The position numbers and the translations under genes were made by a program. A stretch of DNA of 60,366 bases, filler included, from Hausera hauseri (lineage: Eukaryota): assembly GCA_046269625.1 (NCBI GenBank). It is 9 parts of 9 records of this genome, joined end to end, with 100 filler letters (N's around TTAATTAATTAA, not from the genome) between each part and the next. Parts side by side here need not be neighbours in the genome. Positions count along the whole stretch, not along the records: positions 56,100 to 60,366 come from JBJURY010667441.1; 8 more parts are not named here. The stretch is one strand, 5' to 3'. The notes beneath the pieces were generated by a model that was given only the letters and a program-made list of their open reading frames with translations, was not told where the DNA came from and searched no databases. Shown one piece after another: positions 1,648-60,366 of this stretch (positions within the stretch are counted from its first letter, which is position 1; each line of letters opens with the position of its first letter).

Positions 1648-1853
1648 CGATTAAAGATTGGTGACCAGAGTTGAGAAAAACCTCTTGACCAAAAAGGAAG
1701 CTACAAAAAACGGAGCGTCACTGAGTGTTATGGAATATTACGGTGAAAAATCAAATTTTTTATTTCATAAATTGCGATCATTGGTAAGAAAATTTACTAC
1801 CAAAATTATTGATAATGTTAAAAATATACTCATAACAAAATTCGTAATTTTAC

Positions 1854-4732: not shown

Positions 4733-5815
4733 ATGGGCAAGGTTCCAAAGCGAAAGAATGAGAGTGAAACTGAAGTCAAAAGCTCCAAACTTGTGAAATA
4801 TGTTGATTTCAGTTTAGTTACTAAAGATATTAAAAGTATGAAAATAACATTGTTTCAATACTAAAATTTTTAGTGCTAAATGTATTCTACGATTACATGG
4901 ATTTTGAGGAATACGATGTCATTGACGAATTTTTAACCGTAAATAAATTCGAAGAAATGCTTTGGTATTTTTCAAATTTTAAATTTTACAATAGCGAGGA
5001 GGTAAGTATTTTAGGTAATTTTTTATTTTTTATGGTCGTTTAAGCAAACTCTTATATTTAATGTTTGTAAAGAAATTCTCGGACGTATAGTGAATGATTT
5101 GAAGGATAAGTTTTATTTACAAGGACAAGTTTTCGGTGAAGAATTTGTGAAAAATCATATGAATCTTATTTCCAACTTTCTCCGAAGTTTTAAATCCGAC
5201 GAAGGAATGAAAGCATGTAAAATCTTGCCAATATATGTGTATTAATCAGCAATCCAAAATATATAAAAAATTTTTGTACGAATTTCTAATGTCTTTGTCC
5301 TGCTTGAAATTGTCGAAATTCATGTTTTGTAAATCAATTTTAGTTAGATCTTAGTCAATTGCGACGAAATCGTCACAGGATTCTCCAGATTACCTTTCAT
5401 ATTATACTGCTAATTTTAATTAATATTGTTTGAAAATTGTCATTTATGCATTAACTGTTTTATTTGTCACTTTTCGTTTTAGAATTTATAAAATAGACAT
5501 GCAAGCTTTAAATGAACCAACACATATCCAAACCGAAGGATCTCCGAAGTGGACATTGTTTCAGTTATTTTTATCATCATTTTGTTTTTCTCGGTTACGA
5601 CGCTATTTAAATTACCAATTGACTATTATTTTGGAACAGGTTCTTTTTGTTTTGTTACATTTTTACTAATTTGGTGACAGGATGGTCTTTGCTGACACTT
5701 ATTTTCTTTATTTTACTGTTTGTATCGCCGATGATTTACTTGCAAATGAGATATGGGTCGAATTCTCAAGTCGGACTATTAGGCGTTATGGATAAGTATC
5801 TACCATTCGGATTAA
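4733..5815 (+). CDS. URB1/Npa1-like nucleolar pre-ribosomal protein, N-terminal part, multi-exon
   Basis: Spliced through ~40-bp introns: MGKVPKRK...YDVIDEFL...EQTLIFNVCKEILGRIVNDL...G...NHMNLISNFL, resembling the URB1 N-terminus as I recall it (MGVPKRK...YDVVE...ETMLIFQV..ILLR..SDL...NHMKLI). 3' end approximate. Confidence 0.55.
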
Positions 5816-6899
5816 GTAAGTAATAGAATTTTCAGGTTTTTCTAATAAAGTTAATTTATGTTATTAATTCGTAATGTGATTTATAAACTTGTTAATTTCA
5901 AATTAGAAAAAGTTTATTTATATAAATGAAATTCTGGAAATGGTTCACAAATTTCGATATCTGTATAAATAAACTGCCCCTTTTGTTGATTCTTCATCTG
6001 TGTATTGTTACTTGTAACAAAACTTTTGATGCACATAAAAATTATAATATAAAAATATATCTCCGAATTCCTCCGCCATATAATCGTCATGTCCCGCTGA
6101 TAACCGCAAATTTCTATGAGAACCTGAGGAGACGGGATATTTCTCTTCTTAGGCATAATCTCCTGTTGGTAAATCGAAAATTTATCTGCCTCCAACGCGA
6201 ACTTCCGGTTTTTGTGTCATACTTTCTCTATTTTTGAACAATTCATTTCCATCTGAATCTTAAAACGGGTTCATGTCTGAGTATTTTATGTCTCCCCACA
6301 CCCAATTACTTTGTTTTGGTTTAACTTTCGCGTTATTACCTGGTCAAAACTTTGCCTTTTTGTTTTCCTTAAATTCCTCAACATCGAGAGTCTTGGAACA
6401 CAAACCATGATTATGGTTGTCTTTTGTTGGTTGGTGTCCCTTGCAGCAACTAACCGTTCTACAATTCGGTTAGTAGAAACATTATTGACTTCTAACAAGG
6501 TAACAAATTTTACCGAGAATACTAAAATAACACATTCGGAACCTTTAAATGATAGCATTTCGCACTTTTTTAAACATCCCCCCACTATGCTTAGAAATTT
6601 TGAACTTTGACAACGTTTTCGTTCCTTTTTCGTGCTGTTTTTTAATATTCGATTTATAATATTTTGTACTTATTGTACTTAAGAAATCTTGATGACAGTA
6701 TGTATATGGATATTTTTACAGTATACTACAAATAATAATTTAATATTTATTTATATAACAGAATAATAATCCTAGTGACTGTTCTCATTACATACATTTA
6801 TCATTAAAATAAATTCGAAATAAAACTGTGCTTAAAAATGTAGCAAAATAAACAAGTATGGTTAGTAAAAATGCTTCAAACCAAACACCAAAGATTTAT

Positions 6900-7355
6900 T
6901 TACATAAATGCGTCTTCACCCAGGCCTTTCCAAGAGTCATTAGCCAATCTTGTAATATCTGAAACTGAAATCAGCTTTCTGTCTGAATTATAAATATCTA
7001 CATTCTGCCGGATTGTTTTGCATTGACTGCAACTATTCAAGCCCAACTTTATAAAACAGTTTAGGCACTGGTGATGTTGCTTGAAGCAGGCAACCACTGA
7101 ATATTCTACAACGGGAGACCAGCAAACGACACATCCATTATCTGGTAGCTTCTTTAATCTTGTTATCGAGCAGGATTTGATGCTGAGTCCATCTGGAGTG
7201 TAAATTGTGCATCTTCTGTTTGCATTGCGACACACTGGACATGTTGGACTCTGTTGAAACCAATCGACGATACAATTAAGGCAGTGATGGTGTCTGCATT
7301 TATGCAAACGGACATTGAAGCCAGTGATAGTTTCTAAGCAGATTGAACAACTCAT
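6900..7355 (-). CDS. Intronless double RING-finger protein (putative E3 ligase)
   Basis: CSIC..CRHHHCLNC..DW..CPVC (C3HC4) followed by a second, degenerate CVVC..C..HHQCLNC..CSQC. ATG at 7355. Confidence 0.8.
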   Translation of the reverse strand: MSCSICLETITGFNVRLHKCRHHHCLNCIVDWFQQSPTCPVCRNANRRCTIYTPDGLSIKSCSITRLKKLPDNGCVVCWSPVVEYSVVACFKQHHQCLNCFIKLGLNSCSQCKTIRQNVDIYNSDRKLISVSDITRLANDSWKGLGEDAFM

Positions 7356-8944
7356 TTTTTCAAATTTGTCATATCTACTACTTCTTATATGGTAATAATT
7401 AACCAATAGAATTTTGTGTGTGTGTGTGTTTATCATCGAAGAGATGATACAGGACCTTACGAGAACAACTTTCTTTGTAAACATTAATAGGAGAATTTCC
7501 CAAAGCAACAATGACAGCACCTGAAAAAGTTTTCTTCTGGTTTCCATCATCTTCATGTATTGATCCATACTCCCATGCCTTATAGGCTTTCTTCCATGAA
7601 TAAATTTCTACAGGCTTTCGTTGTACCTTTTCGTGCGGATGTTTTCCAGGTCTACCAGTACCACTATAAGGAAAGTTTATGAACGTTCAAATGCATAGTG
7701 GAGAATTGAACAAGTTTTATATCCTTATGAAGACAAATAGTCTGTTACCCAAACGACTGAGATTCGCAGAAGTACACGAGACAAGCATCTACTGGCTCAT
7801 TTGGCCGAATATGAATGCAAGAACTGGGAGGAGTGTTACAGTTCACCAATTACTGAAATTGGTAGAATTAATGTTTTAATAAATTTTATTCCGACTTTCC
7901 AAGACTTTCAAATAAGTAACACTTCAACTTTTGTAACAAATTTATATAAAATTAATTTAATATGCTAATAAGAAGTGGGTAAACCGAGATTATTTTTTTT
8001 CAACTAGTAAAAATTTACAAGCTTCAGTGTATATATTGAAAATTAATTTTGAATGATTCAAAGTTCTCCATATGATAACTTGAAAACTGATGAATAATAA
8101 GAAATTCATAATAGTAACTTGTGTGTGTTTGTCATCATTTAACTTAATGATTACGTAATATTTGGAAAATGACATCATAACCTAAATCCATGTGTCATCA
8201 TTTATATTGAAAATACACACTAATTTGACATCGAATTTCATAATCAATGGAATGGCAGTTAATGAAATGCCATTGCATAACTTCCGACACAAATTGACAT
8301 TTTTAAAAATGTTAACAATTTTACTTGTTGTATTTTGCATTTTTACAGTTTCTCAATCATCGGCATATCCAGTTGGTGTGTTTGCGGACTCCAATACCTT
8401 AAGTGATCTACAAAGTAAAGTGGAAAATAACGTCGACCTGAATGTCAATGACTTGTCAGTATATTCAAGTCATGGAAGAATTGCCATAAATTTATTAACG
8501 TTAAGTATTTAGTATCCAATAGGGATTAAAGGTGTAAAATGATACTACATCCTGTCTGCAATTAAATCGCGAATACCGAATCACAAAGCAAATGCCATAT
8601 GGAACGACCGATGGGAAATAAGATTTTATAACAACATTACCTTCGATTTTTATTGAGATTTTAAAAATACTCAATAAATAGATGCTAAACCGCTTTAAAT
8701 GCAGAGCCCTTTCTTACGTTAGTTAAATTGTAAACGATTACCGGAATTCTTAAAGAATTGTCGTTGTTACAACTTTCATAATTAACTAGAAGACTTTCTT
8801 CAACAAAATAGGCTTTCACTTAAACAAATGAAAATCATAATATATTGACATTTCGGAACAAAATAAGTAGATTAAAAAATAAACAGATAAATCAACCTGT
8901 AAAGCTTAAAACCAAATTTATTTGAACATACAAAAGTTAATCAG

Positions 8945-16229: not shown

Positions 16230-16457
16230 AAGGATGTGGGGCCTTGATGTGCCCCATCAATTCGATCAATAGTGCACTGTGCTGCGATTGATAAGTGAAA
16301 AGTGCAAAAGTACCCTTAGCAATGGTGCGTAGCGGCACCGTTGCTAGGCACTTTATGGATCGATAGTGCACAGTGTGTACTATCGTTCGGCACATGTGCA
16401 AAATCGATTTATCGATTACAACCCCCTCGGGGTGGGCCAGAATTGCTATTTTCCCCC
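16230..16457 (+). repeat. Palindromic MITE-like repeat (copy 2)
   Basis: Several hairpins (TAGCAATGGTGC...GCACCGTTGCTA); right part matches 15125-15243. Left boundary approximate. Confidence 0.7.
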
Positions 16458-16928
16458 TATTTTTATGATTACCAGCTTGAATCCAAACAGCAAAGCAAAG
16501 TATGGATAATGAAAGGAAATCCTCTACCAGTAAAGTTCAAGACCACCAAGTCAGCTGGAAAAACAATGGTCACAGTTTTTTGGGATTTTAAGAGTGTTGT
16601 GTTGGTGGACTTTTTGTCACGTGGGACAACAATGATAGGCCAATATTACGCTGGATTATTGGGGTGTTTGCGAGAAGCTGTGAAGAAGGAGCGTCGTGGA
16701 AAAATAAGTCGTGGTATTCTGCTCCAACATGATAATGCACCTCCTCACACCTCCCATGTTTCATCCGCCACTGTTCATGATTGCGGTTTTGAACTTTTAC
16801 CTCACACATCCTATTCCCCAGACCTTGCCCCCAGTTACTACTATCCGTTTTCAAATCTCAAGAAAGCGTTAGGTGGAAAAAGATTTTCAGATGATAATGA
16901 ACTGAAAGCATCAACCTCATTTGATGAT
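16458..16928 (+). pseudogene. Mariner transposase C-terminal (DD34D) half
   Basis: ESKQQSKVW, KTMVTVFWD, LLQHDNAPPH and YSPDLAPSYY (third catalytic D lost). Confidence 0.9.
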
Positions 16929-19489
16929 TGTAAGATAGAATTATTCATAAAATATTTACTATAAAAGCTTTTTTAACATTTATTTCTTTCACTCTGTAAA
17001 TGAGTCTTACTTTCCTTCTTTTCTGAAGTTCCTGGTTTTCTGTTGGCTGTTTTTTGACTTATCTTTTGAGTATTAATATCCATCTTGATTGCTCCTCACA
17101 TCCCCCTCCTTTAAGTATTTCCGCAGTTTTTCCACATTTCTTTCCAGAATTGTGCCGTCCGTGTGTTGCAATACATATCGTCTGTCGTGTTTTCTCTCGA
17201 TGACTTTGTATGGCCCTTCGTATTTGTCTTTATCTTTTGCTCCTGATTCCCTCTGTATTACTATGCTTTCTCCGACCTGGTATACGCTTTTTACTGGTAC
17301 CTTTTCTGGGTTATTACCCTTTGTTGGTTCTATTGTTTTATTCTGAACCTGCCATCTTTCTCTATGTATTGTTCTTCCGAATATTATTTCTTCTGAACTT
17401 TTCCCTGTTGTTTTCTGAACTGTCGCATTTAGTGTGAATTCTATCTCTGGTAGTGTCAACTCCCAATCTGTTCGTAGTCGATCATGGAGAGTCGAACCTA
17501 TATACTCTCTAATTGTCCGGAATTGCCTTTCCACAATGCCATTGGTGTTGTGATGATACGGGCTCGAATAGTACATCTTGATGCCCATTGACGTCGTCCA
17601 ATTTTTAAATATCTTAGACTCAAATGCTTTTCCGCAGAGTGTGTGTATCTCTTTCGGTACGCCGAATTTGAGAATCCGTATTTAGCACCGTGTCTTCTAT
17701 TGTAAGTTCGCCCTGTTTTGCTATCGCCGATAGTGATATATATCTGCTAAACTGGTCTATGATGGCCAATATGTATTTTTTCTTCTTCCAGGTTTCTTTT
17801 AACGGTCCGCAAATATCAATGTAGATCTTCTCGAATGGTTCGTTTGCCGAGAGTCTCAGGGTCTCTTCCTTCGTACCCGTTGTCATGGTCTTGTTTCGCT
17901 GACATGCCTCACAGCGTCCAATCACTTCCTTGACGGTGTCTTTCATGTTTATCATGTCGTAGTTATTGATTATGTATTTTGTCACTTTTTCTATTTCGTC
18001 ATGGGATAGCATTGATAGAATTGCTTTATCATTTCTTCCTTCTTATCCGTTGGTATCCATATCTTGCCTTTTCTTGTCTTCACAATGCCATTTTCTACTA
18101 CGAATTTCCAATGCTCTTTGTTTGAGATGTCTTCTTTTATTTCTTCAATTTCTTTGCTGTTTCTTTGATATGGATATAATTCTGTCGATTCTACTGCATT
18201 TATCCTCTGAGTTTTGATCTTATGGGAGTTGGCCTCTTCGTGAGCTAACACGCATTGACTGCATGTGCCACAATTGGTTCGGGATAACATGTCGGCGTTA
18301 GCATGATCTGTTCCTTTCCTGTATTTCAGTCTTATGTCTAAACTTGATAAATAGTTTATCCAGGTTTGGAATTGCACTGTTATTGGCTTTTTTGTTTCTA
18401 ACATGAAGGTGATGGCCTTGTGATCCGTCTTTAATGTAAACCTTCTCCCATACAAGTAGTGATTAAAATGCTGACAGAAGTAATACATAGCCAGCAACTT
18501 CTTCCGTGTAATGCAATAGCCTTTTTCGTGATTATTCATTCCTTGTGATCCGTATGCAATCACTCTTTCATGCCCACTGTGTCTTTTTGTGATAATACTG
18601 TTCCAATCGTATTAAAGCTAGCATCGGTATCCAGAATAAATTCTTTTTTGAAGTCTGGGAACCCTAATATTGGTGGAGATGGCAACGCCATCTTCATTGC
18701 TTCAAATGCTTTGTTGCAAGACTCGGTCCATACCAGTTTTTTGTTGCTCAGTCCGCACATTTGTTCTAATGCCTTAGCTTTTGTGACATACCCTTGAATA
18801 AATCTCCTGTAGTAATTGCAAATTCCTAAAAAGCTTCTGAGATTTTTACGCAATTTGGTTTCTCAAATAATTTTATGGCGTCCAGCTTGGATGGATCCGC
18901 TTGTATGCTTTGTTATTCACAATATTTCCCGAGAACTTTACATCTGTTTTCAAGATGTGACATTTCTCTGGGTTTATTCTCAATCCCGCCTTTTTGATTT
19001 GATCTAGTAATTTCTCTAATATTACATAATTCTCTTTCAATGATTTCGAAAAGATCAATATATCGTCCAGGTATACTATAGTTTGTTCCATGTTTTCCAA
19101 TACTTTGGTCATCAGTTTTCGGAATGTAGCCGCTGATGCTGCTATACCAAAAGGCATCCTGTTGAAACAAAATTGTCTCCATTTAGTCGAAAAGGCTGTT
19201 TTCAACTTGGATTCTTCCTTTAGTTCGACCTGGTAATATGCGTTTCCCAGATCGATTGGTGTGAAATATCTAGCACTATATAGTTTATCCATCATTTCCA
19301 TCATGTTCGACATGGGATACGCTTGTTTTTCCGTGACGAGGTTCAAGTGTCTAAAGTCTAGACAAATTCTGACATCGTTTTTCTCTTTCTTCCAGACGCA
19401 GATCATCGGAGCATTCCAAGGTGAATTACATTTCTTGATGATATTGTTTTCCCATAGGTTTTGGATGGTCTCATCGATTTTACTTTCTA
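16929..19489 (-). mobile_element. Gypsy LTR retrotransposon (family C): frameshifted RT-RNaseH-integrase, PPT and short 3' LTR
   Basis: RT YLDD, RNaseH FILDTDAS/TDHKA, integrase YIDICGPL/AIIDQFSR, GPY. PPT AAAGGAGGGGGA at 17101-17112. LTR TGTGAG...CTTACA at 16929-17100. Confidence 0.92.
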
Positions 19490-19589
19490 NNNNNNNNNNN
19501 NNNNNNNNNNNNNNNNNNNNNNNNNNNNNNNNNTTAATTAATTAANNNNNNNNNNNNNNNNNNNNNNNNNNNNNNNNNNNNNNNNNNNN

Positions 19590-22899: not shown

Positions 22900-25065
22900 T
22901 GGACAGTTGAAAAACCGATGCAATATGACCGTTTAGATTAAGACGGCAGTCAGTTTCACCAGTTTAAAAGTCAATTTCGTGAAATTCAATATTACCAGAT
23001 GATAGTTCAATAATTAAAACTTGTTTACCAAAATCTGAAGCATAAACGTCGGACAACCAGTTTAAAAAAGTGATTGAGGAAGACAGACTAATTACGCAGA
23101 TTAGTCTATATTCGTCCTATAATTTAAATGATTGAGTGTATGAATAACTCTCACAATTACCTTATGTTATTTCGTCGGAACTGGTCGAGCAATAAGATGT
23201 TGGATTTGAGTACCCCGAACACTGAGTGATCTTCACCAACGATTATGGATTATTGTTTTGCCGATGGTTTTCTTTGATCATATAACTAACAGTTCCATTT
23301 TCCACAGATCCTGATCTTCCGCAGTAATTTTACCCAAAATCGAATGGATCGTTGCTATTCCATTACTCTCAGCAATCCGATAGAAATACTGTTGTCGAAA
23401 TGTAGGTGTACAGTCGTTAACGTCAAGCACTTTAATTTTCACCTTACACGTATCGTTCAACGACGGTTGACCGCTATCTTTCTCTATAATTATCAACGAA
23501 TATGAATCCTTCTGTTATCGATCGAATTTCTATTGCGTTTCAATTTTCTCTGAACTCGTTATAGTAAAGTAGTAATTATACATGTTGTTTACAATCAGGG
23601 TATCCGGATCGTATGATTTGACGTACCCAATTAACGCACCGATTACGTTGTTTTTCTTATTTGAAAATTGAATTTCCAACGATGAAAATTTTGGTGGGTT
23701 GTCGTTTTCATCGACAATCTACACGCTGAAAACCTTTTCACCAGTCAGTGCAGGTCGACCTTGATCCGTGCACCGAATTAATATTGAGTAATAACTGATC
23801 CTTTCCCGAACAAATGAACTGTTGGGATTTTTGTCTATTCGGTAAACCATTAGCATTCCACCATTCGGCTGCAGAAACGAATATTGTCAAAGAATGGAGA
23901 AATAATACGTATCGTTTAAATCACACGAAAATTCGCTGTTTATTCCCCGATCTTCGTCCTTTAATGTAACGGTCATGATAACTTGACCGTTCTTGTCATT
24001 CTCGAAAATTGATGCTGATCGTTTAGACAGTGAAATGATCAGTTCATGATCGTTACAATATTCAATTTCGATTGTGACCGACATTTCGTTTTCTCGGCCA
24101 CCGCCATCAATTGCCGTTACGTAAAACGTTATTTTCTCTTTTTGCTGCAACGATTGCAAACCATGTGTGGCTAAAAACAAACCGTTACCAGTAAAAAAGA
24201 ACATATTCTGGGAATGATCACTGATTTTGTATTTAATTTGACCGTTCGGTGTGCTGCTATCGTCTTTATCATATTCCTGTAACTCAGTCAGAGGTCGCTG
24301 CGGTTCACATTCTCGAACTTTTCTGTAGATTGAACTCGTTGGCCGCGTCGGAGTATTGTCGTTAACGTCAGACACACTCACCGTTATTGTACACGTACCC
24401 TGTTGTTTACTCGTATCTTTAGCGATTAGTATGAATTCAAAACTGTCAACTTCGTCACGATCAATCGGTTTAATCGTTTTCCAATACGGAATTTTTACAT
24501 TGTTCATGACTTTTTTGACAACTTTAAAATATACCGACGCTAGATGCCGGGCCGACTTACTATTGCTCGTTGCACCAGTCTCCATGGAATATTTGTCAAT
24601 ACCGAATGTTTGACTGTCCGGGTCGTCAGCAGTTGGCAAAGAAAATTCCATTTCCACATCGTTATTTTCTTGAACGGTCAATGTTTTATGACGCATGGGA
24701 AAAATCGGTGCGTTGTCATTTTCATCTTGGATTTTAATGCTAATTTCGAATACTTTGTTGTCAACGGACACGAACAATGTGATTTTACAAATATCGGAAT
24801 GTTTACAAATGGCTTCCCGATCGATGTTTGATCGTAACCGTAGAATTCTGGTTTTCGGGTATAAACTTAAATAATTGTTGAAATCCGGTTCGTTGGTAAT
24901 CAGATCAAATTGTCCGTTTGGTAATTTTAGTTTGGTAATATAGTTCAGTAAATTGAACACATCTCCGCCGTCTTTATTTTCGGTTATTATTAATTCTATA
25001 ACGTGTTTCTCACAAGCGATAAGTTCCACTACTATTAGAATCATGAATGCGAATTGAATGGACAT
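22900..25065 (-). CDS. Protocadherin-like cadherin ectodomain (largely intronless, frameshifted after ~EC4)
   Basis: Signal peptide, IDREAIC, DENDNAPIF, ADDPD, IDRDE, DVNDNTP and further DxNDxxP repeats at ~23700 and ~23420. No TM segment seen; 3' end approximate. Confidence 0.88.
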
Positions 25066-26549
25066 TCTGAAAGTGATCTGAAAACGAAATCGCTATAATT
25101 CACACCAAAACTTAATCGTTTATCTTTTTAATAATTATTTGAGACAAAATACTGGACGTAATTCTTACGATTCTCCAATTTGATTCGTTTGTTCAGAAGC
25201 AGTAGCAATTGGCTTAAAAGTCCCAAATAAAATAAACGAATTGATCTGTGTGTGCTCTTTACCGTTTTACCGTTGCATTGCAATTATTTAAACCAAGATT
25301 ATATAATGTCAATCAATATAGGCTTTGAATGATAACGTCCATTTTCATTTAATTTTCCATATTGAAAATAATCAATGGCTTTATAAAATTGTTAGTTGTT
25401 TTTGTATGCACATTTAGAGAATTGGTCTAATAATTAACAATAGGGTTTTTATTTAAATGGTTTTTACCGTTTCGTGTTAGTTAGAAACATTGAGATTAGA
25501 AACATTGGGAGATTGGATCTCTCAAGTGACACAACTAAATGTTTAGTTTTTCTAATAAAACAAAATAATGTTTCCTCTGAGGATATATACAACAGAACTG
25601 TTAATAAATTATTCTGCCGCTATTTATATAACTGCTTGTTTAACTAAACTTTCTTGGGTGGTTGCTATTTCCAATGTTTAATGAGCTGTAGCTCGTACAG
25701 CAAAAGTGGAAGGTTCATCAGAAACTTTCCGCTCCACCAAACAAATACGTACTTCACCGTGTACCAAAAAGTAGTGAATTCAAGTGTACCAGAATTAACA
25801 TTTTGGCAGCTACTAATTTTTTTTCATTAACTTATTTAAACAGCGTAATTTTTTGGATTTGATGTTGAGAACATCGAATTTCTTTACCGGAAAGCTATTT
25901 ATTACATTCTTCTACCCCCGTTTTATAATATTGGTATGCTGTAAAATTTAATTATTATTATTGTTATTACTATTTTATTAGTGAAGTGAGAATGAAAACG
26001 ACATGTATTTTTATTCCATATACAAGAATATAATCTTGGTAAACATGTACATTATTCACATTAGTGACTAGTTTATTCATAACGTTTCGAAAGTCCAAGT
26101 GGAAGAAATTTGTATTTGTATAAACCAAATAATGGCACAATTGTCGTTAACTCACTTTCGAAAGGGGAAGTTAGGGGATAAATCCCCTCCAAGATACCAT
26201 TAACTGGTTCCAGAGTTGTACAAACAGTTTGAAGTAGTAGAGGATGCATTGTACTGTAGTTTCTAGATATTTTTTGTGATTTTTATGAGGTTTCGTAGTT
26301 ATGACAATTAGTGTAGCTCACATTGATACTTCTAAGCATATTTATATACCTTGTTCGACTAAATCATCAAATGTTCGTTTTGCAAATTTTCGTAAACCAA
26401 ATGCTACTCATGAATATTTGACTCTACTACTTTTTCTGACAGCTTACGTCACCGAATCGCATAATCAAGCATGTATCACTTAAGCTTTCAAGAAAACGGA
26501 GACGTATAAAATGTAATGCTCACAAATAAGTTGAAAAGGTTTGGCCAAA

Positions 26550-27003: not shown

Positions 27004-30000
27004 AAGCAAATGGGCCAGAGGGAGCCGGCCGCTGTGGGGACCACACCAACCCCCGTGGCAAAGTGAAAGCTATAAAGGGCAAAGAAGACAGCGAGAAAAA
27101 ACCGCAAAAAGAAAAAGTGTCTGTGTCAGTCGATCTTAGTGTGGACAAGACGTTGGGTGCCTTCTAGTGATTTTTTCCTGCTATACTTGCTGAATGTGGC
27201 TCCGCATGTTTTGTTTTTATGCTGTGTTTGTTTGCAGAGGTTGAAGTTGAGGAAAAATTGTCGGATTTTGTTGTAAGTATTGTATTGTGCGAAGAGGAAT
27301 CAGAATGAAGAGAAGAAGAAGGTGAATGAAGAAGAGAGATTGTTGAAAACGGATGGTTAAAGGTATTCAAGGAGGTGTTAGAAGATGGAGAAAGGACAAA
27401 ATGTGTAGTGGCGGATAAAGGAAGAGAAGGAGAAGTAGGAGTAGAAATTGGAATTGATTTATGCGAGAGAGTGAAAGTGGAAGATGAAATAGAGGTAGTG
27501 ATAGAGAGAGGAAGAGAGATAGGGATAGAAGTAAAGAGAGGAGGAGGTTGCGAAGCGGAAGTGAAGGGGGTAAAAGACGATATGTGAGGAGGAAGGGAGA
27601 AAGAAAACGCCGAATATGAGTAAGGTGTGGAAAGAGATGCAGAAAGAGAGAGAGAAAGAAAAAACGGTGAAGAGGTACAAGGCGGAAAAAAGCAAAAAGA
27701 TGGAGAAGGTAGGTTGTTACCAGGGGATGCAGAGGTGTTGGAAAGCTTGAAGGTGCAGAATCGGATGGGGAGAAAGAGGTTGAATTGTGAGAAGAAACTG
27801 AAGTGGAAGTTTTGGAAGAAAACGTAGGGGAAAGTGGATTAAGACATTGAGCAGAGATGGAAGGTGAATTGTTGGATTGCTGCGCGTCGTATAAAGATGC
27901 TTGTGGAGAAGTGACTTCGATGGTAGATGTATCGTCGATGAAGAAGGCCGGCTTAGCGTTGTTGATGTGAACTGTTATTTTTTTGTCGTCTTTGAGAATG
28001 ATGATGTTGTGGGAGTGTAGGCAAATTACTTTGTAAGGGCCAACATACCGAGGTTGAAAAACACACGGCATTTGATTCTTTAACCAAACGAACTTGACAG
28101 TATATAAATCGTCGGGTATGTAAGGTTTATTTGCGTGTAACAATTTGCAAAATGAGTCTTTGCTGACCTCAAGGAAGTGTCTCTGTGCCGCTTGTATGGT
28201 TTCGTCTGTAGGAGTATTGTCCAGCGCAGTCATCTCGAATAATGATCTGATGGAAGTGCCAAATAATGCTTCTGCAGGTGAACAGCCTGTAGAAGTAGAT
28301 GGTGTATTCTGCCAGCCAACCAGAACGTACTGAAGGAGTGCAGTCCAACTGCGATTGGACTCAGCGATGATTTTGAGAGACTTTTTCACTATTCCGTGAA
28401 AGCGTTCGAGAAAGCCATTCGATTGGGGATGATATGGGAACGTGTAAATGTGGTTAATTCCCAATCGATTGATAAGAGCTTTAAACAGGTTAGATTCGAA
28501 CTGTGGACCTTGGTCCGAAATGATGTGGCGAGGTGATCAAAACCTGCTAATCCCGGTGCGGATGAAAACGTCTTCGATGGGTTCTGTGTTGGTGCTTCGA
28601 AGCGGAAGGACCTCTGACAATCGCGAGGAACGGTCCATCATTGTGAGGACGAAGTGATGACCGTTGTCTAAGGGTAGTGGGCCTACAAAATCAATGTGGA
28701 CGGATTTTAAACGAGACGTGCAGCGAAAATGAAATAGTGGCGGCTTTAGATGCATAGTAACTTTGTATTTTTGGCATGCCATACACTGCCTAACCCATAC
28801 CTGCACATCAGAGCGCATCAATGGCCATAATACTTGGCGTTGTAAGAGTCGAAAAGTGGCCTTGGTACCGGGGTGATTCAACGAATGGATGGTGTTGAAT
28901 GTTTCTTTTTGAAGCTATTCAGAAAGGATGACTTTAGGATAATTAGATTTGGAGGAGTCAAAGACCACACTGTCGATGGTTTTGCACGATTTAAAAGATT
29001 TAAGGATGTCAGGAGGTGGCTGGTTTTGTTGAAGTTTGGATTGAGGGGAAATTGGTGTAAAATTAATCGAGTTGACCGATCGGGACAAAAAGTCAGCTAC
29101 TAAATTGTCGACCCTGTTTAAGTGCTTAATTTCAAAATTAAATGTTGACAAATACGATATTTGCCTCTCTTGATGTGGAGAAGGCGATTTCGTGGTGAAA
29201 ATTTGAAACAAGGACTTGTGGTCCGTTTGTATTGTAAAGGTTTGTGCAGTTAGTAAATGTTTGAAGTGTTTTACGACAAGGACCATTGCAAGCAACTCTC
29301 TGTCAAAGGTGGAATATCTTTGCTCTTGTGCTGTGAATTTTCGAGAAAAGAATTCTAATGGCTCATGGGATCCATTTTTGACTTGATGGAAGACAGCACC
29401 TGCAACTGTTACGGATGCATCCGTGGTTTAGAAGAGTTCTGCATGGGAGTCAGGATTGGCCAGGATTTCCAGTTTTAGATTATCTTTGAGGTGATCGAAA
29501 GCGTTGACTACTTTGGCGGTCCATTGAATAGGCTGTTTTTTCTTGCCAGAGCTTAGTGATGCAAATGGAGCGATTAGAGTGGTGCAGTGTGGAATATACT
29601 TATAAATAAAGTGCAAGGTTCCGAGGAAAGAACGCATCTCTGTTGATGTACGTGGTAGCTGTATGTTTTTTGAGCTGTGATGCGGTCTGGCTGAAGTGAA
29701 TGTCCGGAGGAAATGCTAATAATATATCATAGGAAATTGACCTTGTGTTGAAAAAATGAGAATTTGGCGAAATTAATTTGCAAACTGTTTTGGTGCAAGC
29801 GCTAGATGATTAAACGTATGTGCTCGGAGTGTTGTTTCGAGGAAGATGATGCAATTAGGATATCATCGATATAGGGATAAGCAAAGTTTAAGCCTGAGAG
29901 AACTGTATCAATATGCCTTTGGAAGGTCTGGGAAGCTCTACGGAGTCAAAAAGGCATGAAAAGGTATTCAAAAAGGCCGAATGGTGTAATGACAGCCGTT

Positions 30001-30720: not shown

Positions 30721-31107
30721 CATAAGGCAAATAGCGTTTTGATAAATAAATTGCAATTTATCCGAGAAACTAAACAACTTGAAACAATGCCAGTTTTGGA
30801 AGAAGACGAGCAGGAATCTTCTTTCCCGGAAAATGTAATGAACTCATTAAAGAAATCCAATTTTCCCAACCACGATCCGTTTAAAAGTGAATTAGAAGTA
30901 CATCAAACAATCGAGGATGAAGATGAAATTTAGTACGAAACGTCTCGGTGTTCCGACGAAAACGTTCACAAGTTATCAGATTTGGCAGACCTGAGTCACA
31001 CATTTATTCCAGATGATGATCGAAATTATGAAACATTTAATCCTAGTGATAGGGAAAGCATTAACTTTACAAAAACAATCAGGAATCAGTGTCAATTGCC
31101 AGACAAT

Positions 31108-32033
31108 GAACTAAACATGGATAATTTAATAAGACGCCTTTTGGAAGTAAGAGGTTGTCGACAAGGAAAACAGATCGATTTATCGGAAGATGAACTGCGA
31201 GATCTATGTTTGAAAAGCAAAGACATTTTTATAAATCAAAATATTCTTTTAGAATTAGAAGCTCCAGTGAAAATTTGCGGTGTTATTCACGGTCAATATA
31301 CTGACCTTTTGAGGTTGTTTGAATATGGTGGTTTTCCACCTGATGCTAATTATCTATTTCTCGGTGATTATGTTGACAGGGGCAAGTACAATTTAGAAAC
31401 GATTAGTCCCTTGTTAGCATATAAAGTCAAATATCCCGAAAATCTCTTTCTACTATGCGGAAATCATAAAAGCGCTGCTATTAATCGAATTTATGGATTT
31501 TATGATGAATGTAAAAGACGATTCAGTATTAAACTATAGAAGACATTTGCTGATTGTTTCAATTGTCTTCCAATTGCAGCGCTGGTAAAAAAATATAATT
31601 TGCTGTCATGGAGGATTATCTCCCGATTTGCAAAAACATGGATCAATTGAAAAAGATTACACGACCGACCGATGTTCCAGATACTGGCTTATTATGTGAC
31701 GTTCTTTGGTCAGATACAGATAAAGAAACAGACACATTGGGTAAAAACGAAAGAGATTTGAGCTTTACATTTGGTGCTGAAAACGTATCAAAATTTCTCA
31801 ATCGTCATGATCTTGATGTGATCGCTCGTGCTCATCAGGTAGTTGAAGATGGTTACGAATTTTTCGCTCGTAGGCAGTTGATTACACTTTTCAGTTCTTC
31901 AAATTATTGGGGAGAATTTGATAATGCCGGTGCAATGATGATTGTTGATGGAAATTTACTCTGTTCGTTTCAGATCATCCAGCCAAGAGAAAGACGAAAT
32001 ATCAGTATCTGGTTAAACCAAATGTTGGATTAA
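31108..32033 (+). pseudogene. PP1: Intronless protein phosphatase 1 catalytic subunit pseudogene
   Basis: [18 protein letters not shown](V)[41 protein letters not shown] is changed to GVIHG, RGNHE to CGNHK, a conserved Trp is TAG at 31537, and there are frameshifts. Confidence 0.95.
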
Positions 32034-46489: not shown

Positions 46490-48480
46490 TTATAAATTTT
46501 CTTGCTTCAAAATTGTGCCCTCAGTGTGAATTTCACACCCCCCTTGATTCTCAAGAATAACTATGTCAGTATACCAGGCTACACGATTTACAAATGCCGC
46601 TGTCAAATCAATTGTCGTGGGATTACGACTCTGGTAAGGAATGATGTCCAAACACAGGATGAAAGCATTCATACCAATGATAAAACCGACATCTAGCGAG
46701 TGAAGTCTTAGGTAATTGAGAGCACACTCCAAATCTTCAATGTCTGTAACCCCCTCCTCCCCCCGCCGAAACAAGTGAAATCTACTTCAATGAAACCAGT
46801 TTCAGAAAAAAAATATTCATAGCAGTAGATAGTAATTACCACTTCCCAATCTGTATAAGATAACAATAATTCAGGCCAGGCAATTGAAGATCTACGTAAT
46901 AGCTACAACCTCAACGTTCTCCAAAATAGGGAATTTCCTCCAACCCTCCTCCATAAATCAAGTGGAACATGTAGTCGACCACATTAGTGTTTACAGACTT
47001 TTCCAACCATTACAAATGGAGGGTACTGGAAGACATTGGAAACGATCACCAGCCCATACTAATTATTGTCTTCCAGACTAAGAATAAAGTTAAACCCATA
47101 AGAAAGCCGAAATGTAATTATGCCAGAGATTACTGGGAAGATTACAGAATCACGATGAAAACAGAAAAAGCCAATAACAGCACTTTTTATGAATAATTCA
47201 TTTCATCTGAATTTGAGTCCAGTCTCAACAAGATGAAAGTGCAAAATGCACCATGGCCAGACCATAATACCAATGAAATTCTTCTCAAACTTGGTGAAGA
47301 CGTCTCACAGACAGTCCTAAATTGTATCAACAAAATATAGAGACAATGTAATGTAACTACAGGATGGAAAACAGCCAACATCGTACCCATCCTCAAAAGA
47401 GACAAGCACCTGGTGAAATGAATAGCTACCGGCCTATTTCTCTTATATTCAGTATTGGGAAAACTGTTGAAAATATGATAAACACGCGACTTTACCAGTG
47501 GTTGGAGAATGATAATATCCTCCACCCCAACCAAACGTGTATTAGAAGAAGAAAGCAGACCGTTGACTAGCTGATCCGTCTGGTACAAAACGTCACTGAT
47601 GCTTTTCAAAAGAAAAGTCAGGTTGCAGCAGTCTTTGTAGATCTCAAGCAGGCATACGACAGAGTGTGGAGAGATGGCCTCTTCCACAAGATGCATAAGA
47701 TGAGAGTGGCAGGTAGACTGTACAAATGGATCAAAGATTTCTTAACGAATCGAAACATTTGTACACCTAACAATGGAATAACATCAGAAAAACTGATTAA
47801 AGAAGGTCTTCCTCAATGCTCCATCCTTTTCCTTATCTATATCAACGATTTGGCAAACTCCATTAATGTGCCCAATGCTTTGTTTGCAGACAACCTAATT
47901 GTACAGCGGAAGAAAAAGTACCACTCCAACCTTGCGATATGTAAGCTCTGTCATAGAGTACGCCAACAAATGACTTCTGCTTCTGCCAATGTATTACACC
48001 TCGAACTAAGGAGAGGAAGGCCTGTTAGTCAACAGCAGACGGATTTCTGAGAAAAGACAAAGACGTTCCTTGGAAGAAGATTGTAATTAACTACGAACCC
48101 AGGAGACGAATCAAGAACAATTCTGTGATGCAAATACATACAGAGATATCAGAAAGCACTATCTACCAGAGACAAGACTGCTAACATATCGGTTTCTAAT
48201 TGTCCACCTAACATAGAACTGGGAAAACCAAAAATTCGAACAAATCTTCTCTGCATGCAAATATGAGCCTCATGCCTATATTGCTAAAACACCCGCGCAC
48301 TGGAAACAATCTACCATTACGAAGATTGTATGCTTATTTACACAGATGGGTCAGTATTTAAAGCAAAAGTTAGTACATGATATAGAGCTGAACTCATTCT
48401 ATCAGATACAAAGGAGCCCATCAAAATATTAGACCCTTGTCGTAAACGGTGCACGAATTATGATGCAGAAGTGGTGCGTC
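46490..48480 (+). mobile_element. Decayed non-LTR retrotransposon (endonuclease-RT-RNaseH)
   Basis: IPGYTIY, GNDHQPI, SYRPISL, AVFVDLKQAYDRVW, LFLIYINDL, LFAD, IYTDGS. Confidence 0.85.
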
Positions 48481-50075: not shown

Positions 50076-51057
50076 AAGCAAGATGCCATACCTTGTCGAA
50101 AGCTCTTTTATAGTCTAGAGAAACGAGAAATAAGACTTGATGGTGGTGGGTGTTCTTCTCGTTCAACATCCTTAGATTAAATATCTGTTCAGTGCTATGT
50201 ATCTTTTCGAATCCCTTGCCACTATTAAAAAACCAACTTCAAGCCTATCAACATGAACTTCAGATGTCTCGTCTCTGTTTTTTTCCTCTATGCGACTGTC
50301 TGCTAAAATCATAGTTAAACTTAATAATGTAAAACCGCATTGTAATTTGTAATAAGATTTAATTTCTAGCGAAATGTGTCATTTGTTCAGTGATAATTCA
50401 CATCAATAGTCTTGGTCAATTTGTCATGTATTCCTCTGTATATCAAAATTTTGGATACAAAAGACTGACTGTTTTGACCAGTGAATACAGAACAGAAGAT
50501 TATATTTTCAATGACCACCTAACAAACAGTTATAGTTTGCTGAACTTCTTATTTCCTTTTTTCAAATTCTCAATATGCTTCAATAAAGTAAACCTACTTT
50601 TGTTTACAAGAACTTCAAAGGGCCGTCAGTTTGGCATTTAAGTTTAAACACAATGGACATGGATTACTGACACCTTCATTGTTACAAATACCGTAGATGG
50701 CAGCCAGTAGGCCAGGTTTGTTTATTGAAGCACGGAACCCAGTCTTTATTCAAATTCATATAATTGTTTATATATCAGACAAAAAGATTTGATAAACCAA
50801 ATATTTCATGACTTGGCTGGTCTACCAATGATTCCGTAACTTCCACCCTGACTGGTATATAAGTTCAGCTGTATATTACTTATACTCATCAGTTTGCAAA
50901 TCGTGATCTAGCGTTCACTGTGACTTTTTCAATCCGTTTTGGATTAATCATCTTTCACGCTTGATATATTAATTTGGCGTAATCTACAATTTAAAGATTT
51001 CTAGAATTGTTGTGTTCTAGTGATTTTGCTCTTCCCATAATCAATCTACAAACTAGC

Positions 51058-51681
51058 ATGGCTGAATCTGTTGTGCGTAGCCCATTAGTGAATGAACTGA
51101 ACGGAGGTGATTTCTTTACAGCATTCAATCTCCATCCAGAAGCGGTGATTGATGCTGGAGTGTGTGGAGAGATTGTGTTAGCTACATCTTTGATCAAACC
51201 CGAGGTCAAACGTGTTGTGAAGAAATTCACTCTTCTACATGATGAGACAAGAGACAGGAATAAAGAAACTTTCCATACGGAAGTTCAGTTTATGCAATCA
51301 TTTGACCATCCATATTTAATGAAATGTTTCTTCGCCGGACAGGGCCCGGAGTATCTAGCATTCAGCATGTCTTTCTATCAAAGGGGCACTCTGGACAAGT
51401 ATTTTCGTAATGTCTGTCCTGAGCTTTCCGAAATGCTGGTCACTCAGGTTGCTTGTGCTCTTCGTTATATGCACAAAAATTACGTTGTTCATCTTGACGT
51501 CAAACTGGACAATATCTTTCTGGATGATAATTTCAATGCCATTCTAGGTGACTTTGGTTTGGCTGTTGAGTTGTATCCTCAGCAGCAGACAATTCGTAGG
51601 GGGTTTTGTGGCGGTACAAGCTGTTATTTTCCTCCAGAACGGATTAATGCACCAGCAGACAAGCTCCTTAACCCGTATAAG
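51058..51681 (+). CDS. Ser/Thr kinase gene copy 2, exon 1 (subdomains I-VIII)
   Basis: DAGVCGEI G-loop, VVKK, HPYL, HLDVKLDN, DFG, GTSCYFPPE, then GTGAG donor. TATA-like GTATATAAG at ~50856. Confidence 0.88.
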
Positions 51682-51899
51682 GTGAGTTTTTTTTTTTTTT
51701 TTGTAGTTTCCTTTTCATAATAGTTTACATGCTGTTGCATTTACTTGCTAATTTTACGATATTTATTGTCTGCTTGTGAACGTTATGATTCTTGCTATCN
51801 NNNNNNNNNNNNNNNNNNNNNNNNNNNNNNNNNNNNNNNNNNNTTAATTAATTAANNNNNNNNNNNNNNNNNNNNNNNNNNNNNNNNNNNNNNNNNNNN

Positions 51900-56099: not shown

Positions 56100-58685
56100 T
56101 CTCGAAGAAACAGGCATCATACGCCGCTCCACATCACCGTGGGCATCACCATTGCACATGGTTCCAAAAAAGGACGAATCATACCGGCCTCGTGGTGACT
56201 ATAGAATGTTAAATAACGTCACCATCCATGATTCATATTCAACACCGTTAGAAACAGACATATTGCATAGTCTAAATGGTGCAGCAATATTTAGTACAAT
56301 CAATCTGGAAAGGGCATATAACCAGATCCCAGTGGCTACCGAAGACATTCCAAGAACGGCCGTAATAACGCCTTTTGGTTTGTTCGAATACCTACGCATG
56401 CCTTTTGGCTTACGGAATGCAAGTCAAACATTGCAACGCCACATAGACCAAGTCCTCATCGACATGTCTTACGCAATCCCATATATGGATGATATATTGA
56501 TTGCATCACCCGATGAAGCGACTCACAAAATACATCTCAAACATGTGTTTCATACGTTGAATGAAAACTACCTACAGTTGAACATAAACAAATGTTCATT
56601 CTTTAAAACTAAAGCCGTATTTCTCGGACTTTGGTTAACACCAAATGGTCACAATCCATTTTCTGAGCGACTAGAGACCATCAAACAAATACCGAAGCCA
56701 TGCGCAGTGACTGGACTTCGCAGCTTCTTTGGCACAATCAACTCGTGCCATCGCTACATTCCGCATTGTTCGGAAATGATGTCATCTATATCTGCTCAAA
56801 GCCAAGGACCCAAGAAATCCCAGGTAAATTGGACAGATGAGGCTGAACAGACATTTTCCAGTGCAAAAATGGCGCTTTTACACCTACTTACACTACAGTA
56901 TCCTAAACGAGATGCATCGTTTATCTTAACAACAGATGCATCCACAATCGCTGCAGGCGCCATGCTTGCTCAATCAATAGATAGCAAAAATGCTCCCATT
57001 GAATTCTTTTCCCACAAATTCAATTCGGCTGAGCAACGCTATTCAACCTTTGACCGAGAATTACTAGCCATAATCCTCAGTGTCAAACACTTCCGACATT
57101 TCCTCGAAGGAAATGTGTTCACAATCCGTACGGATCACAAACCACTCATTCACATGATGAGTATGAAGAACCCATCCCCTCGTCAAGAGCGGCACATTTC
57201 ATTTCTATCAGAATTTTCATTCCAGATAGAACACATAACTGGAAAAGACAATACAGTTGCTGACTTCTTTTCCAGAACTGGGATATCGACAATATCCTTT
57301 GACCCCATTTTCACGGAAGAGGTTCTCCGATTGAACCCTCCACATGAAGACGATGTTAAGTTCTTCAAAACAGTCGACACAAAGGATGGAATACACTACA
57401 ATACCATACTCAATGGTTGTCCACGCCCAATTCTAGCAGCAAACCTACGGAAACAGGCGTTTGACACCATTCACAACATTTATCACCCTGGATCAAAAGC
57501 CACAGCTCGCATATTGAGCAGTAGAGTTTGTTGGCCTCGCATGCTGAGCGATACAAAGCAGTGGGCAAAAGAATGTTCACTTTGCCAACAATACAAAGTC
57601 AACAAGACTATACAACCCCCAATACTACACTATCCTACTGGCTGACGGTTTGAAACCATCCACATTGACATAGTAGGACCACTTCCCAAATGTAATGGAT
57701 ATCAGTATATCCTAACCATTCTGGACCGGAAAACAAAATGGCCTGAAGCCATTCCAATCCGCCCAATAACAACGCAAAGCGTTGTGGCTATATTGCTCAA
57801 CACATGGATTTTTCGGTTCGGAGTACCCAAAAACATTATAACAGACCAAGGTACCCAATTCGAGTCAGCCATGTTTAAGCAATTAACAAAATCGCTTGGT
57901 TCAAAGCATATTCACACATCGCCTTATCACCCGCAGGCGAATGGCTTGATTGAACTATTTCATCGTACACTCAAATCATCCCTACGTACATATGCCATGA
58001 AAACAAGAATTGGCTGGAAGCCTTACCCATCATGCTACTAGGATGGAGAAACACTCCGAACACTAGCACTCATGCCTCTCCGGCACAACTATTACTTGGT
58101 GCCCACCTTACGTTCCCACAAAATCTTGTAAGCAACGAGGAAGTAACTTCAATTCCTTCTCTCAACCAAGCCCGGAAGCATTTCCTGTCAATAGACACGA
58201 ACCCTGCATTCCACAACAATCACAAGAAACCAGTCATGCCCAAGAACCTACAAGACGCATCCTTTGTCTGGCTGAAAAACCAACAAAGACACGGTTTTGA
58301 ACCGTACTATACAAACCCCTACAAGCTCATAGAAATCACTGAGCACAAGGCCAAAATACTGCGCGTCAATGAGGAACATATTGTCCACTTGTCGAATGTA
58401 AAACCCGCATTTGGCTATCACGATTCCGATACCTAAGAGCCTATCGAACAAGACATACCCAGCATGTCAGAAGTAGACAAGCTTCGACAAAACTACGACA
58501 GAATTGATCCATTCAATATGGACATTACAGTAGCCTATAACCCAACCCCAATCCAAACGGAAACACATATTATCCCAACATCCGTACTTCCGAAAACGGA
58601 ACGTACAACTATACGCAATCAAACCCCTACCGCCCTGGTATCAAGACGCACCAGGAGTGCATCCAAGATACCCCGACTCCACTAA
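56100..58685 (+). mobile_element. Gypsy (related to family A) pol: RT-RNaseH-integrase and tail ORF
   Basis: 497-aa ORF with YMDD, LTTDAS, TFDRELLA, TDHKPL, HPG..C..C; then HIDIVGPLP, ITDQGTQFES, YHPQANG. One stop and one frameshift; no LTR identified. Confidence 0.93.
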
Positions 58686-58715
58686 AACCCTACAGGTTCG
58701 AAAGAAATAGTACCC

Positions 58716-58828
58716 GATTGCATGCAGCATGCACGTCGCATCAAAGTAGGTGGGGATTAAACCCACAGTGTTGAATCGACACTCCCTCATACCGCCTTTT
58801 ATACGCGACGGGCACACCACATACAACC
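58716..58828 (-). ncRNA. Putative structured RNA unit 1 (long closing stem, tRNA T-arm-like hairpin)
   Basis: Minus-strand stems GGTTGTATGTGGTGTGC/GCATGCTGCATGCAATC, CGTCGCGT/ATGCGACG, AGTGT/ACACT and GTGGG-TTTAATC-CCCAC. Confidence 0.45.
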
Positions 58829-59000
58829 AGGCGACTCATTAGAAGCTCGCTGAGAATCCGAACAATTTTCTATTCGACACGGTTAGAACCGTTGTCCCAC
58901 TACGAATTTGCATAACTCCTTTGCAATGCCATTGCGTCGCCAAGCGCTTAACACAAACCTATCCACACTGCCCACCTCGATACCACTCACTCAAATGCCT

Positions 59001-59114
59001 GGTTGCACGTGACGCAAGCGCTGCACCAAAACAGGTGGGGATCGAACCCACAGTGCCGATACTGGCACTCACTCATGCAGTTTTTCATGGGCGGCGGCTG
59101 CGCTCCATGCAACC
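59001..59114 (-). ncRNA. Putative structured RNA unit 2
   Basis: GGTTGCATG/CGTGCAACC, GAGCG/CGCTT, AGTGCC/GGCACT and GTGGG-TTCGATC-CCCAC (B-box-like). Confidence 0.45.
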
Positions 59115-60366
59115 ATGCAACATGCAAAATTAGATATTCTGTTCTAATATTTCGATCTTGTTACGATACTCGTCAAACATTTGGCAATAAAACATCCAAA
59201 TGTAATAAAGATTCGCACTTTCCATATGTTTACTCAGAATTGAGGCAAATATTAATTTCGGTTCTAATTTCAGAACCTGCTCAAGAAGGCCATGAATTCG
59301 TAAAATTTAACAGAAAGTGGAATGGGTTAAAAGTATTTATTTACCATCAAATTTTCTGGATCTTAGATGTCATTATTACAATAATAAAAAATATACTATC
59401 AAAACTATTAATCCACGTAAAACGACATCCAACCACTTAAATGTTAAAAATACATTATTTTTCGTGTTTACTTAATTGAACATACTTTCACGTAAACAAA
59501 GAATTGCAAAGAAAACAATTTCAACCAGCTCGGTCGAAACATCAAATAACATGCAATATAAAGGAAGAAGTTATTTGATATAGTATAGCCTCAATTTTAA
59601 TAATTTCAATTGTTCATGAAATGCTTTCAAAATTTGTGAAATAATTTACATAAAAATTTTAGACATTAATATATGCATGTTTTATCTTCTTATGTAGATC
59701 TTTCGACGACTGTGTTCTAAACCGCAAAACATTAGAAAGTATTAAAATTTTATTTATTATCGCTTTTCTGTGTGTAATATCCACAATGTAGTTCTATGTA
59801 AAAATATATAATTACACACAAGTGGTAATACAAGACTTTAATTTGCAGACAATTCAAAGAATTTATTTCGTTAATGTATCTTAAATACAGAAATCGTTTA
59901 CGTAATGTATACATGAAAAATAATAATTGTGAATCAAAATATTTATTAGTGCATCAAGACAATCTGTATATTTAAATTTCTTTCAAAATACTGATGTTGA
60001 AGAATGATGTTTGTTTAATGTCTTTTATCCAGATTATATCAGTTATGATCCATCGGGTAATTTTAAAAGTTATCTGTTTTCATTTGCTAATGCAAAGTTG
60101 CTGTTTCTTTTAAACTAAAACACAAATCAAAAATACGATGTGCAAACGGCAATTTATGCAATAACCCACCTTCAATGTCATAAATCTAACAATTTAACTG
60201 GGTCAAACAACGCGTTGTGTATATTTTTAGCAGCGATGAATTAAATTGCATTATATTAGATGAATTGAAAGTATCATTTCTAGTCAAAATTATTTGAAAT
60301 AAAAATTTCAATATTTTAATGACAGTTATTGTCTCATTTGTCTCTGCGGTACACAAAAAATAAGTC

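Follow-up and report, generated by a model that had tools for sequence, protein, structure and literature searches.

Behind the pol gene of a Ty3/Gypsy retrotransposon of Hausera hauseri lie two antisense RNA units bearing a tRNA-like domain, and the same unit recurs across the element family at the border between pol and a variable 3' cassette. We propose, with a probability of roughly 0.4, that the units are antisense, shrunken-tRNA folds at the fixed border of this cassette and serve as RNase P-type cut sites, which would end antisense transcripts before pol. The proposal builds on features that were observed directly, namely the position of the units, their pairing pattern, their linkage to the element, its tRNA-Leu primer, and the length, patchwork, introns and orientation bias of the cassette. 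The window, that is, the whole stretch of 60,366 nucleotides that was analysed, consists of contigs joined end to end from an assembly of 869 Mb in 909,086 contigs (GCA_046269625.1), and the source contig of the units, C667441, makes up its positions 56100–60366.

The plus strand of this contig carries a Gypsy pol at 56101–58685, with reverse transcriptase (RT), RNase H and integrase domains identified from translations and Pfam (RVT_1, RT_RNaseH and Integrase_H2C2). The 5' part of pol is lost at the contig start, and the stop codon of its last frame lies at 58683–58685. The copy is decayed: pol contains stops and a frameshift, each unit has one mismatch in its acceptor-like stem, and the T-loop of unit 1 is altered. 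In sister copies the order of the element is an LTR of approximately 1.2 kb, the PBS, the gag region, pol, one or two units, a long 3' region, the PPT and an LTR. The RT–RNase H–integrase order, together with the LTR start, PPT and PBS of the sister copies, places the element among the Ty3/Gypsy LTR retrotransposons; its integrase motifs suggest a possible affiliation with the CsRn1 clade. A target-site duplication was not seen, because no contig spans a whole element. The 1.2-kb LTR (L101, positions 5130–5900, and other LTR copies) has a GC-rich, coding-like middle, with approximately 300 nt conserved among distant copies and the rest variable. Unrelated contigs of the window encode a RING finger, a mariner-type transposase, other RT, RNase H and integrase pieces, a cadherin, a Ser/Thr phosphatase and a protein kinase (6900–7607, 16320–16964, 17991–19541, 23887–25092, 27367–29427, 30934–31539, 47571–48050 and 50995–51720).

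The initial annotation had placed two tandem structured RNAs on the minus strand at 58716–58828 and 59001–59114, and the sequence bears this out. Unit 1 (58706–58836, minus strand) has a long, G-U-rich closing stem and an inner stem bearing the tRNA-like domain (58742–58798), which is composed of an acceptor-like helix of 7 bp, a linker of 8 nt, a hairpin (58767–58783), a T-arm (58750–58766) and a discriminator base (58742). Unit 2 (58991–59122, minus strand) shares this architecture, its domain (59027–59084) comprising an acceptor-like helix of 7 bp, a linker, a hairpin (59052–59069) and a T-arm (59035–59051). The 7-bp helix that closes the hairpin and T-arm, formed by 58792–58798 with 58743–58749 and by 59078–59084 with 59028–59034, had previously been missed. 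Among the GC-rich direct repeats of the region, that formed by the two units ranks first (33 nt, 85%, spacing of 285). Their minus strands fold at −49.7 kcal/mol (z-score of −4.86) and −53.2 kcal/mol (z-score of −4.20), respectively, with 0 of 200 shuffles as good; the plus-strand z-scores are −2.17 and −3.99, so that unit 2 folds well on the plus strand too. The spacer between the units (58837–58990) shows no significant fold (z-score of −1.44 for 58829–58970), and part of it recurs downstream of unit 2 in other copies. The unit model R1, which has both copies in its training set, scores 133.6 bits for unit 1 and 125.7 bits for unit 2, and it detected no unit in the other Gypsy pieces of the window. 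A tRNA gene with a cloverleaf was considered and rejected: ARAGORN predicted 0 tRNAs, an Rfam search gave no match at the gathering level, and the best tRNA-clan match in the window, unit 2 with tRNA-Sec, reached 17 bits (E-value of 1.1, cut-off of 47 bits) in a weak alignment from which the D and anticodon arms are absent.

For comparison across the family, a structure of 46 pairs was specified: an outer stem of 19 plus 8 pairs, an unpaired leader of 4–5 nt, the 7-bp acceptor-like helix, the 8-nt linker, a hairpin of 7 bp, a T-arm with a 5-bp stem and a 7-nt loop, and one discriminator base. In an alignment of 70 units (71 candidates, one dropped for an internal deletion), 90.0% of the cells are paired, against 88.0% in shuffled alignments and 31–49% with slid partners; in the three helices of the tRNA-like domain (acceptor, hairpin and T-arm) the figure is 93–96%. 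Cells with double changes number 146, against 69 after shuffling, whereas neither the pairs that show double changes (14 against 13.7) nor the extra pair types (60 against 62.2) are more numerous than in shuffles. The compensatory change that had been noticed between the hairpins of the two units recurs family-wide, as U-A in 33, C-G in 23 and U-G in 13 of the 70 units. The earlier description of the structures as conserved and tRNA-like is supported.

A second alignment comprises 148 distinct units (one opposite-strand duplicate removed), in which 4927 cells are Watson-Crick, 1100 G-U, 243 A-C and 466 other. Of the variant pair types, 39 of 56 retain pairing where 8 or more units share them, against 18 of 118 where they occur in at most 2 units. 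On the unit tree, which is approximate because of recombination between unit types, pairing survives 65 of 87 changes along internal branches, against 302 of 603 at the tips (Fisher p = 1.7 × 10⁻⁵), with only one double change within a single internal branch. Since internal branches keep pairing above the level of the tips, selection is likely to have acted on the antisense-strand fold while the lineages were active. The initial annotation had further held that the closing stem relies on G-U pairs that form only on the minus strand. The minus-strand preference is borne out by the predominance of G-U over A-C cells and by a lower minus-strand z-score in 56 of 74 units (every second unit), although the plus-strand z-score also lies below −2 in 52 of the same 74. 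With RNAalifold, part of the fold is recovered from the minus strand (SCI of 0.31) and no consensus fold from the plus strand. The A/C-rich bias of the plus strand could inflate the minus-strand G-U counts, and the tips likewise favour G-U (197 against 130). A third unit type (L240–L247 and L255) differs in three respects: its acceptor-like stem includes a G-C pair, its GG linker is 7 nt long, and its hairpin always contains a C-C mismatch. Chimeric units, which combine the 5' half of one type with the 3' half of another, occur in L054, L129 and L134.

Internal Pol III promotion, suggested initially together with a VA-RNA-like gene, finds little in the family to sustain it. The A-box (TRGYNNA-N2-3-GG) lies upstream of the B-box in such promoters, and VA RNA has a long terminal stem. 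Unit 2 contains the A-box-like letters TGGTTGCATGG, which mismatch the consensus, and the consensus pattern occurs in 0 of 148 units (shuffled mean of 6.0) and a relaxed pattern in 12. C56 of the B-box is kept in 57 of 148 units, the remaining B-box positions being conserved; because few units (7 of 148) show the mirror CpG change, U56 is read as a lineage state. A UUNRA T-loop is found in 145 of 148 units, and by its sequence the loop appears to behave more as an RNA T-loop than as a DNA B-box. TTTT lies inside the unit, on the 3' strand of the acceptor, in 55 of 148 units, and just past the closing stem in 74 of 143. The A-box expected of the Pol III type 2 gene, SINE2 and Helenus classes is thus missing. 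That the unit is a Pol III small-RNA gene (a VA-like decoy), or an insulator that binds TFIIIC and separates pol from the cassette, is improbable: the B-box-like T-arm, the closing stem resembling that of VA RNA, the TTTT behind this stem and a border site suited to an insulator would fit, but the A-box, C56 and internal TTTT counts do not, and an insulator acting at the DNA level would need no paired stems. Published tRNA-derived promoters do exist in LTR elements such as Helenus (PMC10886601). In the cited sections of that source (Kojima 2024), the Helenus, Cassandra and Ajax TRIMs resemble our element in carrying a tRNA-like sequence that is not their own primer; they are short and non-autonomous, and what is conserved in them is the pair of A and B boxes within the LTRs and not a fold, whereas here gag-pol is encoded, the unit is internal and antisense, its fold is conserved and the A-box is absent.

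The units are tightly linked to the element. A DNA search of the genome gave at least 47 matches (40 scored of 334 candidates), copies other than the window's own being 75–93% identical, and two T-arm patterns gave 164 and 331 matches, with 0 for the reversed controls; the genome thus contains at least 331 matches to the motif. All 30 loci picked by pattern only, on 28 contigs, contain a whole unit; pol lies beside it on 19 of these contigs, the contig ends within 120 nt on 7, and the remaining two show the pol tail (by tblastn) and the element spacer, respectively. No free-standing unit was found among the 30. Contigs picked by the protease region have the unit in 8 of 9 copies that reach the element end, the exception (L112) having a deletion from pol to the PPT and neither unit nor cassette. 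The T-arm is located 92–103 nt downstream of the pol-tail motif in 110 of 113 loci, most of them selected by the unit, and the other 3 are spurious self-matches. Four pol-less derivative copies retain the last pol codons and one unit. The expectation that the units travel with this Gypsy is thus supported, while the linkage to pol, the fixed position and the pol-less derivative lead us to reject, for the loci sampled, a dispersed SINE pair. The derivative (L131, L213, L214 and L215) is non-autonomous and also possesses a PBS and a gag remnant; in L131 the distance from unit to PPT is only approximately 320 nt. A first metagenome scan found no relatives, and a second returned 58 Gypsy loci with 35–55% identity to the query, many of them on contigs that end soon after pol; R1 matched 0 of the 58, ARAGORN gave 0 in 49 of them, and a T-arm scan detected nothing after pol; given the short contigs, this absence carries little weight.

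The PBS of 11 distinct copies, 11–12 nt in length, is complementary to the 3' end of the host tRNA-Leu and does not match the 3' end of the unit, which discounts the earlier idea that the unit is the element's own primer. On three contigs (L342/L119 on C119121, together with L121 and L125) the LTR end is followed by approximately 45 nt complementary to mature tRNA-Leu including CCA and then by unrelated DNA; these read-through copies lie beside the LTR ends in the orientation of the unit. Such complements point to tRNA-Leu as the primer and suggest that the RT of the element copies far into it. The T-arm of the unit matches host tRNA-Leu at 15–16 of 18 positions in 95 of 148 units, a likeness suggesting that the unit likely originated as a read-through copy of the tRNA-Leu primer. 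On C119121 a PPT and LTR follow approximately 1.5 kb further on, the element interior there being primer read-through plus foreign sequence only. Two loci (L127 and L128) contain tandem tRNA-Leu-like genes with a spacing of approximately 175 nt and varied anticodons.

The same likeness allows a different, improbable reading in which the plus strand matters and the complement of the T-arm is the 3' half of a Ty3-type bipartite PBS, holding the tRNA-Leu T-arm and bridging the genome ends. It would account for the shortness of the 5' PBS, for a unit complement that continues along tRNA-Leu where the PBS ends, and for the 15–16 matching positions. Precedents are Ty3 (PMC5371799) and Drosophila gypsy (PMC1635307), which in the passages cited share a short 5' PBS and a 3' segment able to pair with the primer T-arm; the segment here lies within a larger fold of the opposite strand, and three loop positions deviate from tRNA-Leu. 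However, agreement with the tRNA is seen at position 59 in 0 of 148 units, at position 60 in 16 and at position 56 in 57, the positions that do match are those required by the hairpin itself, and the acceptor stem, second hairpin, closing stem and minus-strand G-U pairs would be left unexplained.

The cassette extends from the unit, its inner border, to the PPT. In the window its start, at 59130–60366, is a patchwork of short pieces common with other contigs (12 matches of 51–229 nt, 82–96%) that leaves the contig before the PPT and 3' LTR; no host gene was recognised in its list of ORFs, and the family alignments mostly end near 59130. Across the family, the sequence behind a unit could be followed for 600 nt or more in 110 regions; 22 of them reach the PPT, the other 88 having no PPT on their own contig and possibly entering ordinary flanking DNA. 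The closed cassettes measure 1.2–4.5 kb, 20 of the 22 falling within 2.2–3.6 kb, and in 21 of them the similarity near the unit to any other fetched copy stops within 1 kb. Genome searches with whole or partial cassettes return scattered pieces of approximately 40–600 nt, the best mostly at 85–100%, each from a different contig, and the partner contigs are frequently mosaics or element copies themselves. Pieces common to cassettes have the same orientation in 47 of 47 cases, as expected of template switching between element RNAs. The junctions occur throughout the cassette, at distances behind the unit that range from 0 to over 1 kb; where they were inspected for microsimilarity, both partners were usually mosaics. 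All 22 closed cassettes contain more A than T and more C than G in the element sense, a skew shared by 4 of 25 control tiles; it is also present in the element's pol and may therefore be mutational in part. Splice-acceptor-like motifs number 352 antisense and 224 sense, and donor motifs 67 and 48, a difference that is not significant.

Pfam searches covered all 60 ORFs of at least 100 amino acids from the long regions and 120 of 999 shorter ORFs ranked by composition. With three transposon hits dropped and each repeated family counted a single time, the host families divide into 16 in antisense to the element and 3 in sense (p = 0.004). The antisense families are PNP, RIO2, trypsin, SMARCC, porin, VPS13, LMBR1, aminotransferase V, GPx, ATP synthase F6, CCDC115, CoA-transferase III, Ldh_2, Nas2, a Ras-family GTPase and Tctex-1; the sense families are ornithine decarboxylase, Prp31 and an LRR-Ig protein. 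In PPT-closed cassettes alone the counts are 5 antisense and 1 sense, the others lying in open regions that could reach flanking DNA, and partner contigs oriented via a shared piece add a further 5 antisense and 1 sense. Several captured pieces are gene starts, and GT-AG introns, read by eye, are retained in the RIO2, Rab, GPx, SMARCC and ATP synthase F6 pieces.

An intact source gene was located for SMARCC only. Its cassette piece has stops and a frameshift, whereas contig C5379, which contains no element parts, has long open frames for the rest of SMARCC and overlaps the cassette at a junction of 77 identical bases; the exact overlap and the intact frames support the view that the piece is a copy whose source collapsed in the assembly. 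Genome searches found no second copy of RIO2, the cassette copy being the only one, which may reflect assembly collapse, an incomplete assembly or insertion in place; its best named relatives are from trematodes and cestodes (approximately 50–55% identity), so that the host is probably a flatworm. The search for a VPS13 source returned other mosaics only, and three further cassettes show short partial overlaps that are not assignable to intact genes. These cases are pertinent to the improbable view that the unit is merely what remains of a host tRNA or ncRNA captured in antisense long ago and retained only through its proximity to pol, the cassette being neutral template-switch junk that collapsed or chimeric assembly partly exaggerates. 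The fragmentation into 909,086 contigs, the sole RIO2 copy, the collapse at the SMARCC overlap and the 88 regions that lack a PPT would agree with it. Yet pairing is kept on lineage branches and the pattern-picked loci include no free-standing host copy, and misassembly would not yield the narrow length range, the uniform orientation of shared pieces, the same-sign skew of all closed cassettes, or a broken SMARCC frame in a cassette beside an intact gene body elsewhere.

Capture of this kind differs from LTR-mediated retroposition in animals (Tan et al. 2016, PMC5131818; reviewed in PMC13317346). Partial host genes, several parents per copy, a position between LTRs and recopying are shared, but in the cited parts of that study the copies were recognised by their lack of introns, take the place of some of the element's ORF sequence and are mostly sense-expressed, whereas here introns are kept, in five genes, and the pieces lie behind a retained pol, mostly antisense, in a size-limited slot of nearly every copy. 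Routine, mostly antisense, intron-retaining capture also misfits the usual minus-strand switch onto mRNA. It could be that the unit itself drives capture, although we think this unlikely: antisense RNA ended by the mimic would be packaged like a primer tRNA, and RT would copy it and co-packaged host pre-mRNA during plus-strand synthesis, so that host pieces are written antisense behind the unit. Besides the antisense, intron-containing pieces, the three contigs with an LTR end and a tRNA-Leu complement, one of them closed by a PPT and LTR, and the retention of the unit by the pol-less derivative favour this, but the junctions are not fixed at the unit.

In the reading that we prefer, that of antisense cut sites, antisense transcription would begin in the 3' LTR or at the starts of captured genes and run towards pol; it is likely, given that most captured genes point at pol and several are gene starts. 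The tRNA-like domain would adopt an elbow like that of mascRNA, a purine-G of the linker contacting the T-loop, and RNase P would cut at the unpaired leader of 4–5 nt, while the paired trailer would impede RNase Z. Cutting would keep antisense RNA off gag-pol, and the element could thereby tolerate a cassette that is constantly reshuffled by RT template switching. To our knowledge, RNase P-cut tRNA mimics in long RNAs are known mainly from the vertebrate MALAT1 and NEAT1, and it is by analogy with MALAT1 that an elbow of this shape, located at the border and preceded by an unpaired 5' leader, suggests an RNase P substrate. The unit has the topology of mascRNA and menRNA as given in the cited parts of PMC11693755: a tRNA-like domain of approximately 57 nt within a longer RNA, with a 7-bp acceptor containing G-U, a short D region, and a hairpin abutting a 17-nt T-arm (5 bp and 7 nt). 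The same source reports that a C-to-U change is tolerated in the mascRNA T-loop. The D-loop GG is needed in mascRNA. Unlike those RNAs, the unit shows no clear D-stem in its 8-nt linker, where GA usually replaces GG (GAG at linker positions 4–6 in 112 of 148 units, GGG in 11 and GGT in 4), so that the two D-loop guanines are generally missing; its leader and trailer form a 27-bp stem, which mascRNA lacks and which the cut-site reading explains only loosely; no U-rich triple-helix element was recognised; and it lies antisense in a retrotransposon and has no Rfam match. The copy L112, which dispenses with both unit and cassette, the partial RNAalifold consensus and the folding of the plus strand also count against cutting.

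If true, the units would represent an independent mimic in an invertebrate retrotransposon, by which mobile elements control their own antisense RNA through an RNase P route. A wider and rather doubtful extension makes the element a sampler of host sequence: the mimic would end, and perhaps package, antisense RNA, RT would write unspliced housekeeping pieces antisense into the size-limited slot, essential genes would be held hostage to piRNA or siRNA silencing, and pol would be fenced off. The cassettes let one ask whether captured housekeeping genes shield the element from silencing. Host fragments in a non-coding part of a retrotransposon are shared with the Drosophila telomeric TART, where they can feed piRNAs against the host gene (PMC7785250, PMC13534243); TART, in the sections cited, is a non-LTR element with a few fixed, mostly piRNA-pathway genes, whereas the genes here are many, unrelated, housekeeping and copy-specific. 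Each part thus has a precedent, in mascRNA, Helenus, LTR-mediated retrocopies and TART capture, and the combination appears to be new; no paper on unit and cassette together was found in the literature searched, which excluded most subscription journals, Repbase and Dfam. The cassettes further offer hundreds of natural junctions for testing how RT acquires host sequence, and they call for caution in annotation, as the only RIO2 exons found in this assembly lie inside one.

Some smaller features of the 3' region were also recorded. A single conserved antisense ORF was rejected because the region differs from copy to copy; one closed cassette (L031, positions 3857–4660) contains an antisense ORF of 268 amino acids with no Pfam match. 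GPx and Prp31 lie head to head behind the unit of L275 (positions 1150–3800), on a contig without a PPT that may enter the true locus; if within a cassette, the pair would mean a DNA template. The last 30 nt before the PPT form a conserved U-rich block, which ends in YAG in 17 of 22 closed cassettes and resembles a splice acceptor or a PPT-flanking U-tract.
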